This document shows positions 40,863 to 46,259 of a DNA stretch of 64,000 nucleotides, piece after piece. Numbering within the stretch: the stretch's first letter is position 1; each line of letters opens with the position of its first letter. Below the pieces are notes generated by a model. The model saw only the letters and a program-made list of their open reading frames with translations. It made no database searches and was not told the DNA's origin. The stretch spans positions 78,492,001 through 78,556,000 of the forward strand of contig JBNRSN020000003.1 of NCBI GenBank assembly GCA_051313645.2, written 5' to 3'. This stretch comes from Centroscyllium fabricii. Its lineage: Eukaryota. The position numbers were made by a program, and so were the translations under genes.

Positions 40863-41582
40863 AAAGACTCAGCATGCACTTTCCTCTGGGGCAGAGAATT
40901 CTAAAGATTCACAACCCTCTGAGTGAAGAAATTACCCCTCATCCAAGTCTTAAATGGCTGACCCCTTATCCTGAGACTATGCCCCCTAGTTCTAGACACT
41001 CCAGCCAGGTGAAACAACCTCTCGGCATCTACCCTGTCAATTCCCTTCAGAATCTTGTATGTTTCAATGACATCACCTCTCATTCTTCTAAACGCCAGAG
41101 AGTATAGGCCCATTCTACACAATCGCTCATCATAGGACAGCCCGCTCATCCCAGGAATCAATCTAGTGAACCTTTGTTGCACCGCCTACAAGGCAAGTAT
41201 ATCCTTCCTTAGATAAGGAGACCAAAACTGTGCGCAGTACACCAGGTGTGGTCTCACCAAGGCTCTGTACAATTGTAGCAAGACTTCCTTATTCTTATAC
41301 TCCAACCCCCTTGCAATAAAGGCCAACATGCCATTTGCCTTCCTTATTGCTTGCTGTACCTACATGTTAACTTTCTGTGTTTCTTGCATGAGGACACCCA
41401 AATCTCTCTGAACACCAACATTTGAAAGCTTCTCACCATTTAAAAAATATTCTGTTTTTCTATTCTTCCTACCAAAGTGAATAACCTCACATTTCCCCAC
41501 ATTATACTCCATCTTTTTTTTTTTTATTCATTGATGGGATGTGATGTCGCTGGCTGGCTAGGCCTGCATTTAGTGCCCATCC

Positions 41583-44481
41583 CTAATTGCCCTTGAGAAG
41601 ATGGTGGTGAGCCACCTTCTTGAACCGCTGCAGTCCATATGGTGTAGGTACACCCACAATGTTGTTAGGAAGGGAGTTCCAGGATTTTGGCCCAGCGACA
41701 GTGAAGGAGCGGCGATACAGGTCCAAGTCAGGATGGTGTGTGGCTTGGAAGGGAACTTGTAGGTGGTGCTGTTCCCATGCGTCTGCTGCCCTTGTCCTTC
41801 TAAGTGGTAGAGGTCGCGGGTTTGGAAGGTGCTGTTGAAGGAGCGTTGGCGAGTTGCTGCAGTGCATCTTGTAGATGGTACACACTGCAGCCACAGTGCG
41901 CCGGTGGTGGAGGGAGTGAATGTTGAAGGTGGTGGATGGAGTGCCAATCAAGCGGCCTGCTTTATCCTGAATGGTGTCGAGCTTCTTGCGTGTTGTTGGA
42001 GCTGCACTCATCCAGGCAAGTGGAGAGTATTCCATCACACTCCTGACTTGTGCCTTGTAGATGGTGGAAAGGCTTTGGGGAGTCAGGAGGTGAGACACCC
42101 GCCGCAGAATTCCCAGCCACAGTATTTATATGGCTGGTCCAGTTCAGTTTCCGATCAATGGTAACCCCCAGGATGTTGATAGTGGGGGATTCAGCGATGA
42201 TAATGCCATTGAATGTCATGGGGAGATGGTTAGAGTCTCGTTTGTTGGAGATGGTCATTGCCTGGCACTTGTGTGGTGCGAATGTTACTTGCCACTTGTC
42301 AGCCTAAGTCTGAATGTTGTCCAGGTCTTGCTGCATATTTACACGGACTGCGTCAGTATCGGACGAGTCTCGAATGGTGCTGAACAGTGTGCAATCATCA
42401 GCGAACATCCCCACTTCTGACCTTATGATGGAGGGAAGGTCATTGATGAAACAGCTGAAGATGGTTGGGCCTAGGACACTGCCCTGAGGAACTCCTGCAG
42501 TGATGTCCTGTGGTTGAGATGAATGACCTCCAACAACCACAGCCAACTTCCTTTGTGCTAGGTATGATTCCAACCAATGGAGAGTTTTCCCCTTGATTCC
42601 CATTGACTTCAGCTTTGCCAGGGCTCCTTGATGCCACACTCGATCAAATGCTGCCTTGATGTCAAGGGCAGTCACTCTCACCTCACCTCTTGAGTTCAGC
42701 TCTTTTGTCCATGTTTGGACTTAGGCTGTGATGAGGTCAGGAGCTGAGTGGCCCTGGCAGAACCCAAACTGGGCGTCAGTTAGCAGGTTATTGCTGAGTA
42801 AGTGCCGCTTGATAGCACTGTCGACGACACCTTCCATCACTTTTCTGATGATTGAGAGTAGATTGATGGGACGGTAATTGGCTGGGTCGGATTTGTCCTG
42901 CTTTTTGTAGACAGGACATACTTGGGCAATTTTCCACATTGCTGGGTAGATGCCAGTGTTGTAGCTGTACTGGAACAGCTTGGCTAGGGGCGCAGCTAGT
43001 TCTGGAGCACAAGTCTTCAGTACTATTGCCGGAATGTTGTCAGGGCCCATAGCCTTTGCAGTATCCAGTGTCTTCAGCCGTTTCTTGACATCACGTGGAG
43101 TGAATTGAATGGGCTGAAGACTGGCATCTGTGATGCTGGGGACCTCAGGAGGAGGCTGAGATGGATCATCCACTCGGCATTTCTGGCTGAAGATAGTTGC
43201 AAATGCTTCAGCCTTGTCTTTTGCACTCACGTGCTGGGCTCCACCATCGTTGAGGATGGGGATATTTTTGGAGCCTCCTCCTCCTGTTAACTGTTTAATA
43301 GTCCACCACCACTCACGACTTGATGTGGCAGGACTACAGAGCTTTGATTTGATCCGATGGTTGTGAGATCGCTTAGCTCTGTCTATCGCATGTTGCTTCT
43401 GTTGTTTGGCATGCAAGTAGTCCTGTGTTGTAGCCTCGCCAGGTTGACACCTCATTTTTCGGTATGCCTGGTGCTGTTCCCGGCATGCTCTCCTGCACTC
43501 TTCGTTAAACCAGGGTTGATCTCCCGGCTTGATGGTAATGGTAGAATGAGGGATATGCCGGGCCATGAGGTCACAGATTGTGGTTGAATACAATTCTGCT
43601 GCTGCTGATGGCCCACAGCGCCTCATGGATGCCCAGTTTTGAGTTGCCAGATCTGTTCGAAATCTGTCCCATTTAGCACAGTGGTAGTGCCACACAACAC
43701 GGTGGAGGGTATCCTCAACATGAAGACGGGACTTCGTCTCCACAAGGACTGTGCGGTGGTCACTTCCACCAATGCTGTCATGGACAGATGCATCTGCAAC
43801 AGGTAGATTGGTGAGGACGAGATCAAGTAGGTTTTTCCCTCTTGTTGGTTCCCTCACCACCTGTCGCAGACCCAGTCTGGCTGCTATGTCCTTTAGGACT
43901 CGGCCAGCTCGGTCAGTTGTGGTGCTATCGAGCCACTCTTGGTGATGGACATTGAAGTCCCCCACCCAGAGGATATTTTGTGCCCTTGCTACTCTCAGTG
44001 CTTCTTCCAATTGATGTTCAACATGGAGGAGTACTGATTCATCAGCTGAGGGAGGGCGGTAGGTGGTAATTAGTAGGAGGTTTCCTTGCCCATGTTTGAC
44101 TTGATGCCATGAGACCTCATGAGGTCCTGAGTCAATGTTGAGGACTCCCAGGGCTATTCCCTCCCGACTGTATACCACAGTGCCACCACCTCTGGTGGGT
44201 CTGTCCTGCCGGTGGGACAGGACATACCCAGGAATGGTGATGCTGGTGTCTGGGACATTGGCTGTAAGGTATGATTCTGTGAGTATGACTATGTCAGGCT
44301 GTTGCTTGACTAGTCTGTGGGACAGCTCTCCCAATTTTGGCACAAGTCCCCAGATGTTTGTGAGGAGGACTTTGCAGGGTCGACAGGGCCGGGTTTGCCG
44401 TTGACGTTGTCGTTTCCGGTGCCAAGGTCGATGCCGGGTGGTCCGTCCGGTTTTATTCTTATTGGTTTTCGTAGCGGTTGA
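41583..44481 (-). pseudogene. APE endonuclease-reverse transcriptase ORF with few lesions (stops at ~42721 and ~42304, deletion/frameshift at ~42115)
   Basis: [93 protein letters not shown]. Confidence 0.9.
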
Positions 44482-44727
44482 TTACAACTGAGTGGCTTGC
44501 TAGGCCATTTCAGAGGGCATTAAGAGTCAACCACATTGCTGTGGGTCTGGAGTCACATGTAGGCCAGACCAGGTAAGGACGGCAGATTTCCTTCCCTAAA
44601 GGACATTAGTGAACCAGATGGGTTTTTGCAACAATCGACAATGTTATCATGGTCGCCATTACTAAGACTAACATTTAATTCCAGAATTAAATTGAATTGA
44701 ATTTAAATTCCACCAGCTGCCGTGGTG

Positions 44728-44798
44728 GGATTTGAACCCATATCCTCAGAGCATTTGACTGAGCCTCTGGCTAGTCTAGTGATATAACCACTACGCCA
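44728..44798 (-). promoter_or_regulatory. Internal Pol III type-2 promoter (A-box and B-box) at the LINE 5' end
   Basis: A-box TGGCGTAGTGG (44798-44788); B-box GGTTCAAATCC (44738-44728); same boxes in the SINE copy at ~12814-12889. Confidence 0.75.
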
Positions 44799-46259
44799 CC
44801 GCCACCTTACTCACTTAGTCTATCGATATCCCTTTGCAGACTCTGTGTTCTTCTCACAGCTTACTATCCAACTTAGCTTTGTATCATCAGCAAACTTGGA
44901 TATATTACACGCGGTCCCTTCATCTAGGTCATTAATATAGATTGTAAATAACTGAGGCCCCAACACTGATCCTTGCGGCACTCAACTAGTTGCAGCCTGC
45001 CAACCTGAAAAAGATCAGTTTATCCCTATTCTCTGTTTTCTGTCCGTTAACCAATTCTCTATCCATGCTACTATATTACCCCCAACCCCGTGAGCCCAAA
45101 TCTTGTGTATTAACCTCTTATGTGGCACCTTATCGAATGCCTTTTGGAAATCCAAATATACAACATCCACTGGTTCCCCTTTATCTACCCTGCTAGTTGC
45201 ATCCTTAAAAAACTCTTAAGAAATTTATCAAACACGATTTCCCTTTCATAAAACCATGTTGACTCTGCCTAATCATGTTATGATTTTCTAAGTGCCCTGA
45301 TACCACTTCCTTAACAATGGATTGCAGCATTTTGCCAACGACTGATGTCAGGCTAACTGGCCTGTAGTTGCCTGTTTTTTCTCTCCCTTCTTTCTTGAAT
45401 AGCGGTGTTACATTTTCGACCTTCCAATCTGGCGGGACCATTCTAGAAGCTAGGGAATTTTGGAAGATCAGAACCAATGCATCCACTATCTCTTCAGCCA
45501 CCTCTTTTAGAACCCTAGGATGTGGGCCATCAGGTCCAGGGGATTTGTCGGCTTTTAGTCCCATTAATTTCTCTAGTGCTTTTTCTCTACTTACATTAAT
45601 TACGTTAAGTTCCTCACCCCCATTAGACCCTTGGTTCCCCATCATTTTTGGTATGCTTTTTGTGTCTTCTACTGTTAAGACAGAAACAAAATATTATTTA
45701 ACGTTTCAGCCATTTCCTTATTCCCCATAATAATTTCTCCTGTCTCAGCCTCTAAGGGACCAACGTTTACTTTTGCTACTCTCTTCCTTTTTACATACTT
45801 GTAGAAGCTCTTATAATCTGCTTTTATATTTCTTGCTAGTTCTCTCTCATTCAATTGTTTCCCTCATCATCAATTTTTTGGTTAACCTTTGCTGGTTTCT
45901 GAAACTCTCCCAATCCTCAGGCTTACTATTATTCTTTCCAACATTATAAGCTTCTTCTTTCAATTTAATGCTATCCTTAACTTCTTTAGTTAGCCACGGT
46001 TGGATCACATTTCCCATGGAGTTTTTGTTTCTCAATGGAATGTATTTTTGTTGAGAATTATGAAATATTTCTTTACAGTGCTCTTCTCTCAGGAAACTAG
46101 GGTTGAAGCTGAATTTCATCAGACTACACTGGTGCTTCCATTGGCTATATCAAAACGTCTTCTCTGCATTCAACCAATGGGCCATGGTGGGAAACTTATT
46201 ATTTAAAGAATCTGATGGGGTGTGTTGTGTAAGCTTCCTTAGGCTGGCAGAGAAGTAAC

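Follow-up and report, generated by a model that had tools for sequence, protein, structure and literature searches.

The distinction between LINEs and SINEs rests on the polymerase that transcribes them and on their coding capacity, the former being Pol II-transcribed coding elements and the latter short, non-coding elements transcribed by Pol III. A retrotransposon copy in a 64,000-nt stretch of the Centroscyllium fabricii genome (contig JBNRSN020000003.1, positions 78,492,001 to 78,556,000; hereafter the window) raises the question of whether one element can combine a LINE's coding capacity with a SINE's promoter. If a coding element of this kind were indeed read by Pol III and its RNA translated via a SINE body, the textbook divide would be broken, a natural long Pol III mRNA would be at hand, the Deu-type conserved domain would gain a function in ribosome entry, and SINEs would be born ready-made through deletion from a LINE.

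A Zenon element and its tRNA-like head

The element is a ~3.3-kb copy (44806-41514, minus strand; Table 1) of the Zenon family, CR1 group, inserted within a CR1 LINE whose RT homology is found on both sides and whose reading joins across the insertion. As expected of a Zenon, it encodes APE and RT domains in a single ORF and carries a poly(A) tail. The initial annotation had described an APE-RT element that lacks ORF1 and begins with a tRNA-like head carrying A and B boxes, and this description holds, with the family 5' end lying ~3 nt further out (reference position 2 corresponds to 44806). The window copy itself is dead: two ORF pieces run into in-frame stops, at 42721 and at 42304, the loss of 20 nt at 42118 throws the sequence out of frame, and the head lacks 4 nt at 44770. 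The family is young, abundant and recently active, and its 972-codon ORF is under purifying selection; ORFs of the older and young subfamilies diverge by 8.6%, with 129 synonymous versus 89 replacement codon differences. Of the features that define SINE2 elements, the full-length element has the tRNA-derived head and its A and B boxes, whereas at 3.3 kb with a selected ORF it is neither short nor non-coding, a description that fits only its derivatives.

Table 1. Coordinates of the Zenon element, its parts and its surroundings in the window
Feature	Positions	Strand	Remarks
Host CR1 LINE, split by the Zenon insertion	44807..46150	-	resumes at 41513 and below
tRNA-like head, family 5' end	44715..44806	-	44806-44801 is microhomology with host CR1
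Pol III type-2 A box	44788..44798	-	young and older subfamilies differ in 1 of 12 columns
Variable-arm-like hairpin between A and B boxes	44745..44763	-	compensatory changes
Pol III type-2 B box, in T-arm-like hairpin	44728..44738	-	subfamilies differ in 1 of 11 columns
Highly conserved 5'-UTR core, directly upstream of ORF	44482..44622	-	candidate translation-entry element
Single APE-RT ORF	41583..44481	-	972 codons in intact copies; interrupted here by two stops and a deletion of 20 nt
Candidate non-AUG start region, GCT-ACG	44470..44475	-	open-frame codons 3-4
3' UTR	41527..41582	-	common to short derivatives; AATAAA (41528-41523) runs into tail
Poly(A) tail	41514..41526	-	no target-site duplication
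First downstream T-run (T6), in host CR1	41442..41447	-	putative Pol III stop for the window copy
Second copy, short internal-deletion derivative	12807..13287	+	reference 3-345 joined to 3168-3307

This family has already been classified as Zenon (PMC13343379, GBE 2026). The elasmobranch consensuses (CarCar, HypSab, RhiTyp, ScyCan and SquAca_Zenon), five of them full at 3.24-3.31 kb, likewise have an APE-RT ORF, no ORF1 and a poly(A) tail, and identity with them was judged from length and from a visual comparison of the first 400 nt, head included. A tree of 97 RTs, among which no named Zenon was included, separates the window element from shark CR1. The main text of that study is silent on the head, T-run avoidance, the non-AUG frame and SINE derivatives, and the words "tRNA", "polymerase" and "promoter" are all absent from it.

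The head is the fixed front end of the Zenon family. All 39 copies retrieved with the head as query align from position 1-3 between unrelated flanks; selection by the endonuclease sequence alone gave another 39, of which 20 extend to the head and 19 are truncated at scattered places (positions 25 to 787), none having an alternative 5' end. A chance SINE-LINE fusion at this locus, which the initial annotation had named as the outcome that would undo its proposal, is rejected because independent copies share the head. Of copies reaching the first 12 nt, 74/77 begin at position 1-3 and 62/77 at position 1; with the A box at position 10, these starts fit a type-2 Pol III start ~9 nt upstream, insertion ends serving here as a stand-in for the transcription start site. 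The older subfamily carries the head too, and the head opens each of the seven elasmobranch Zenon consensuses published for five species of sharks and rays (PMC13343379); three of these consensuses contain the B box GGTTCGAATCC. Two hagfish consensuses and one from coelacanth lack it over their first 400 nt. A/B-box patterns revealed no tRNA head in 52 ORF-bearing loci of distant relatives, and 50 loci yielded a single tRNA, on the opposite strand. Among relatives with DNA, L079 is the closest (same clade, support 0.99); it contains 20 T4 runs, has Met as codon 21 and lacks the boxes. A 79% relative (L047) led to tandem relics that are rearranged and do not include the first 800 nt, and was dropped.

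The head is tRNA-like by its boxes and arms only. ARAGORN finds in it no tRNA, and hence not the cloverleaf of a functional tRNA gene, and Rfam finds neither a tRNA nor a ribozyme, so that a functional tRNA or known ribozyme is rejected. Folding of head and core does not exceed that of shuffles (z = -1.2, +0.1 and -0.8), and boxes and inter-box sequence do not differ significantly in conservation (2/23 vs 14/52, P = 0.12). Among ten distinct heads, both sides are altered in 3/6 pairs of the inter-box hairpin, a count drawn from related sequences and hence given no probability value. This covariation points to a role of the head at the RNA level, beyond the needs of a promoter, and counts against a Pol III reading.

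Avoidance of T-runs on the sense strand

In SINEs, TTTT and T-V-TTT terminate Pol III, and T-minus SINEs, like the Zenon element, are without a terminator (PMC8466645). Over 41514-44803 the sense strand has 0 TTTT, 10 TTT runs and 17 A4+ runs including the tail, in agreement with the initial annotation, whose estimate by eye of ~22% sense T was slightly high against the counted 20.8% (685/3290). The T4-free stretch to which this region belongs (41448-45007) is, at 3560 nt, the longest in the window, the next being 1907 nt. By itself, zero TTTT is weak evidence (expected 0.5-3, P 0.03-0.56): P is 0.007 against mononucleotide and 0.07 against dinucleotide shuffles, 0.12-0.18 under stricter nulls (expected 1.5-1.9), and 0.56 when codon junctions are held fixed (expected 0.5).

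What is clearly non-random is the deficit of TTT and of T|T codon junctions. After synonymous shuffling, 7 TTT are observed versus 15.3 expected (P < 0.0005), the deficit persists with CpG/TpA context held (P = 0.003-0.013), and with codon junctions fixed the comparison becomes 7 vs 8.3 (P = 0.24). Clusters of four T in five number 2 versus 8.7 expected, and A, C and G show no corresponding deficit. The older subfamily has 5 TTT versus 11.2 expected (P = 0.004), a test that is not independent of the first, since the two subfamilies share much ancestry. T|T junctions occur at 0.35 of expectation in Zenon, versus 1.39 in same-genome CR1 and at least 0.72 across 52 relatives (metagenome ORFs); a partial relative, L081, is also low, at 0.55. 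On the codon-shuffling test that the initial annotation had proposed, depletion is upheld for TTT and T|T, being absent from CR1 and from the 52 relatives, and is marginal for T4 alone.

Per kb, young Zenon has 0.12 T4, older Zenon 0.29 and CR1 4.5. Full copies are free of internal T4+ in 19/24 cases, and the column majority contains no T4. The single recurrent T4 (13/76 copies) is a CpG decay that creates a stop codon and is spread over haplotypes, and an active T4-bearing subfamily was rejected on this basis. The earlier interpretation gains partial support, as none of the feasible refutation tests overturned it; from these sequence patterns we infer Pol III transcription and selection against terminators.

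Start of translation and short derivatives

None of the 3/3 intact 972-codon copies has an in-frame AUG upstream of the endonuclease, and 11 AUGs precede the ORF. At the candidate GCT-ACG start, the frame is preserved between subfamilies (118 vs 115 nt), and the ACG is not kept in every published Zenon consensus. This 3-nt frame keeping falls within an AAT repeat and may be slippage. Initiation at an upstream ATG followed by a -1 frameshift was rejected; this ATG, found in 16/18 older copies, is not needed, because it is out of frame and is altered at its last base to ATA in 72/72 young copies, so that the young subfamily is without the out-of-frame ATG found in other elasmobranch Zenon. In the 5'-UTR core, 1/140 columns differs between subfamilies versus 250/2914 in the ORF (P = 1e-4), with no unusual folding (z = -0.8). 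This core, which would also be the conserved SINE body, may be Deu-domain-like.

At least six separate internal deletions have produced short SINE-like derivatives in this genome, a direct route to new SINEs. Short non-coding elements bearing the Zenon head number thousands and, at 17/20 sampled junction sites, far exceed the LINE; the junction of the second window copy recurs in 8/20. The young short elements come from the LINE, because LINE-only sequence flanks several different deletion joints and nearly all diagnostic sites carry young-type letters; older short copies (77-82%) also exist. Their layout is that of the shark DeuSINEs SacSINE1 and LmeSINE1 (~400-480 nt; PMC5499810; PMC4824008), with tRNA head, conserved body and LINE-type tail, although those were described as non-coding, with only the tail borrowed from a partner LINE (L2-2_CM, CR1-4_DR-like). 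Persaeus, a SIDE of lepidopteran Zenon, is likewise a short, non-autonomous product of internal deletion, but without tRNA homology or a Pol III promoter (PMC6740152). In the bipartite-LINE model (Kojima 2018, PMC5786205), SINE body and tail derive from the LINE 5' and 3' parts, as here; in that model, however, the tRNA head joins after the deletion and "SINEs cannot encode a protein", whereas here the coding element is already headed.

Probable transcription by Pol III and its alternatives

An APE-RT ORF, a tRNA-type head, T-run avoidance and the lack of an AUG together point to a coding element that is likely read by Pol III, and Pol III transcription with cap-independent, non-AUG translation is our best reading, with a probability of roughly 0.6. 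TFIIIC would bind the boxes of the tRNA-derived head, which would serve as promoter, and Pol III would start ~9 nt upstream of the A box and transcribe the whole 3.3-kb coding RNA. T-runs would have been purged from the sense strand because they would end transcription early. The terminator typical of a Pol III unit is absent from within the element, and transcription would run on to the first T-run of the flanking DNA and stop there, whether or not AATAAA directs polyadenylation; 16/55 flanks have a T4 no more than 40 nt from the 3' end, versus 18% background (P = 0.04), a weak excess. The uncapped RNA would be entered internally at a non-AUG codon, past the 11 upstream AUGs, with the conserved core of 140 nt as the most likely guide, and the protein would prime reverse transcription on the 3' tail; any deletion keeping head and tail would yield a working SINE at once. 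SINE length is usually ascribed to poor Pol III processivity (PMC10886601), which counts against this reading. The fuller proposal, of an autonomous coding lineage transcribed by Pol III since before the shark-ray split, its 2.9-kb ORF recoded against terminators and its uncapped RNA translated via a SINE body, is offered tentatively, with the odds somewhat against it.

The most serious competitor, an unlikely one that nonetheless carries real weight, is an ordinary Pol II LINE, whose 5' region, taken from a SINE in the distant past, now acts as Pol II internal promoter or as structural or packaging signal, and in which TT avoidance reflects RNA stability, U-rich surveillance, RT slippage or lineage mutation bias. 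LINEs are as a rule transcribed by Pol II (PMC5786205, PMC10886601), the element has AATAAA and poly(A), its lack of T4 is of marginal significance, and lepidopteran Zenon derivatives are without a Pol III promoter (PMC6740152). Yet the element starts at the tRNA-gene start position and sharks and rays alike retain both boxes, the deficit is particular to T and to the Zenon family, 11 AUGs upstream of an ORF with no AUG are hard to square with cap-dependent scanning, and the same head drives the short non-coding derivatives.

Less probable still is a head acting at the RNA level, in which host Pol II read-through transcripts would be cut at the tRNA-like fold in RNase P-like fashion, leaving a precise uncapped 5' end as the R2 ribozyme does. 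Precise 5' ends, compensatory stem changes and the non-AUG ORF would all fit, and R2 and RTE offer precedents (PMC6765202); T-run avoidance would be left unexplained, most copies begin 2 nt before the tRNA-equivalent +1, and the fold has decayed beyond recognition by ARAGORN or Rfam. A passenger head, acquired time and again from some abundant SINE through template switching or gene conversion but serving no LINE function, would accord with the preponderance and age of same-head short elements but is very improbable, given the single 5' end of endonuclease-picked copies, one conserved head-ORF junction in five species and the LINE origin of the young short elements.

Parts of Pol III transcription with uncapped translation have precedents. 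As described in PMC6765202, R2 and L1Tc have a single ORF and uncapped RNAs translated by IRES-like entry, to which the Zenon reading is likened, and R2, which is transcribed by a polymerase other than Pol II, gives rise to SIDEs; both elements rely, however, on an HDV-like ribozyme and co-transcription, and the Zenon element has no ribozyme match. TRIMp3 elements (Cassandra, Helenus, Ajax; PMC10886601) are non-SINE retroelements with a Pol III promoter, but all are short, non-coding LTR elements, unlike coding Zenon. With intact copies in a young family, plain reporters could test whether a 3-kb Pol III RNA is translated in nature, by what means an uncapped retrotransposon RNA lacking an AUG is translated, and what role the conserved central domains of SINEs play.

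Contigs of four sequencing runs, presumed to be of RNA, cover 30/30 bins of the element with head-to-tail joints; they show related sequence in four other organisms and have no bearing on transcription. Target-site duplications of at least 7 nt accompany 3/55 complete insertions, and the last 140 nt fold better than 192/200 shuffles (z = -1.84).

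The tRNA-like head as the 5' end of a Zenon family

The Zenon element in the window is a dead copy, carrying two stops and a 20-nt deletion, and comprises a single APE-RT frame downstream of the head and, as the initial annotation reported, no ORF1. The tRNA-like character ascribed to its head stands as far as the A and B boxes are concerned (see table), but neither ARAGORN nor Rfam calls it a tRNA. Zenon LINEs lacking ORF1 and possessing poly(A) have been reported from five elasmobranch species (PMC13343379). Compared by eye over their first 400 nt, the seven shark and ray consensuses published there match the element, each of them opening with this head, while two hagfish consensuses and one from coelacanth are without it. 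The family is thus already known and its head already present in published sequence, but the words tRNA, polymerase and promoter do not occur in the main text of that paper, so that the head is not discussed there. The literature searched, with most subscription journals and Repbase Reports outside its coverage, yielded no description of a Pol III-driven coding LINE.

Features of the window
Feature	Position	Strand	Remark
Zenon element	~44806 to 41514	minus	3' end is a poly(A) tail; inserted into a CR1 LINE
A box of element head	44798-44788	minus	from sequence
B box of element head	44738-44728	minus	from sequence
Short internal-deletion derivative of Zenon LINE	12807-13287	+	two parts, 96% and 91% identical
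LINE RT fragments of other families	13682-14089, 20087-20687, 21622-21879, 23855-24532		28-49% identity to Zenon element ORF
N run, 140 nt	32000-32139		no relation to Zenon element

That independent full-length copies share the head was borne out in the 7.2-Gb genome, whose protein hits mark it as shark-like. When head plus ORF served as query, the alignment of all 39 fetched copies began at position 1-3, and their flanks were unrelated. Because this query is biased, the search was repeated with endonuclease DNA alone: 20 of 39 copies extend to the head (18 of them independent, as three share flanks), 19 end at dispersed positions between 25 and 787, and no alternative 5' end was seen among the 39. 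The head thus belongs to this family. Three copies with both flanks in common (L068, L069 and L075, G000:C800) go back to a single insertion that was segmentally duplicated.

The 23 copies that align over their full length in one piece, together with the window copy, lie 0.75-1.96% from the column majority, and three of those full-length copies retain an unbroken 972-codon frame. By exact 28-mers, at least 2,702 copies extend to the ORF start and at least 21,828 are found near the 3' end. In an older subfamily (per-copy identity 74-91%), copies that have kept their 5' end carry the same head; the ORF of this subfamily differs from that of the young one at 8.6% of columns (129 synonymous and 89 replacement codons). 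Among 55 complete insertions, target-site duplications accompany only 3, and upstream flanks often finish in G or AG ahead of the G-rich start, which suggests microhomology-mediated 5' joining.

Avoidance of T-runs

Counting upheld the claim of no sense TTTT and about ten TTT in the window element (0 TTTT, 10 TTT runs; T = 20.8% vs an eye estimate of ~22%), and the longest T4-free stretch of the whole window lies there. Under synonymous codon permutation of the ORF of intact copy L013, TTT runs are depleted (7 vs 15.3 expected, P<0.0005), as is T4 (0 vs 2.9, P=0.03); L017 and L031 agree. Clusters of four Ts in five number 2 vs 8.7 expected, and the same test for A, C and G gives no deficit. 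With codon box and CpG/TpA context held, TTT remains low (P=0.003-0.013) but the T4 deficit loses significance (P=0.12-0.18). Because the TTT signal disappears once the next base is fixed (7 vs 8.3), the depletion is mainly avoidance of T/T at codon junctions, which stands at 0.35 of expected. Of the proposed T-run depletion, therefore, the TTT and T/T deficits hold, whereas the T4 component does not survive the stricter nulls.

As a control, 20 CR1 copies of the same genome have 4.5 T4 per kb, TTT at 142 vs 151 and a T/T ratio of 1.39; in pooled CR1 pieces under box-holding nulls, the TTT deficit is small (6-12%) and T4 is in excess. Among 80 metagenome loci, the 52 whose ORF spans at least 600 codons have a median TTT ratio of 0.99 (minimum 0.79), vs 0.46 in the Zenon element, and a minimum T/T ratio of 0.72; in a shorter metagenome ORF (L081) the latter falls to 0.55. 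The older subfamily, not independent of the young one, shows TTT at 5 vs 11.2 (P=0.004) and T4 at 0 vs 1.8 (P=0.11). The sole recurrent T4 (13/76 copies) results from a CpG change and brings a stop codon with it. One related metagenome LINE, L086, has the lowest T4 and T/T ratios of the 52 controls; at the start of its ORF, ARAGORN places a tRNA-Ile on the opposite strand (L086:1965-2039, minus).

Translation start and conserved core

The open frame starts after a stop, and in most copies its first Met is residue 286, beyond the endonuclease. The 330-nt leader contains 11 AUGs, every one closing a short frame, and a +1-frame ATG present in 16/18 older copies is absent from the young family. 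Together, these features point to a non-AUG start near codons 3-4. In the 140 nt before this candidate start, 1 column differs between subfamilies vs 8.6% in the ORF (P=1e-4), and this core appears near-identical in the published Zenon consensuses (PMC13343379). Its folding energy is not unusual. In the inter-box hairpin of the head, three pairs are changed on both sides; conservation of the boxes exceeds that between them, yet not significantly.

Short derivatives and the mode of expression

A body-to-ORF pattern occurs at 17,226 sites. A sample of 20, drawn from the earliest entries on a single contig, comprises 1 full LINE, 1 5' piece, 1 older LINE and 17 short elements arising from at least five different internal deletions; a sixth deletion joint was seen among 12/199 body-to-tail sites. 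Because the short elements carry LINE-only sequence at their joints and young-type diagnostic letters, the young ones derive from the Zenon LINE; in older short copies, old-type letters tend to prevail. Originally, a SINE front end was probably captured by the Zenon ORF, since non-elasmobranch Zenons are without the head. The conserved body may be the Deu domain of SacSINE1. The layout given in PMC5499810 fits this assignment.

The best fit, to which we assign a probability of roughly 0.6, is that Pol III would transcribe the coding element and that its RNA would be translated cap-independently. Four features favor this reading: a tRNA-type head sits precisely at the 5' end and has persisted in both sharks and rays; the depletion is T-specific and confined to this family; the ORF is AUG-less and follows numerous upstream AUGs; and the deletion products spread like SINEs. 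A Pol II element that repurposed its head seems unlikely, though it is the strongest of the alternatives; processing of the head at the RNA level is more doubtful still, and a head that is a mere passenger is highly improbable.

L171-L190 (e.g. G000:C711:537.36-537.41 Mb, C1333, C69, C856) share a composite unit, often tandemly repeated, of rearranged ~78% identical Zenon ORF pieces (one inverted) and other repeat sequence; its appearance is that of a satellite-like array that was amplified secondarily. In the flank of L216, ~755 nt beyond the junction, lies an 899-codon ORF that by eye resembles an LTR-retrotransposon gag-pol.
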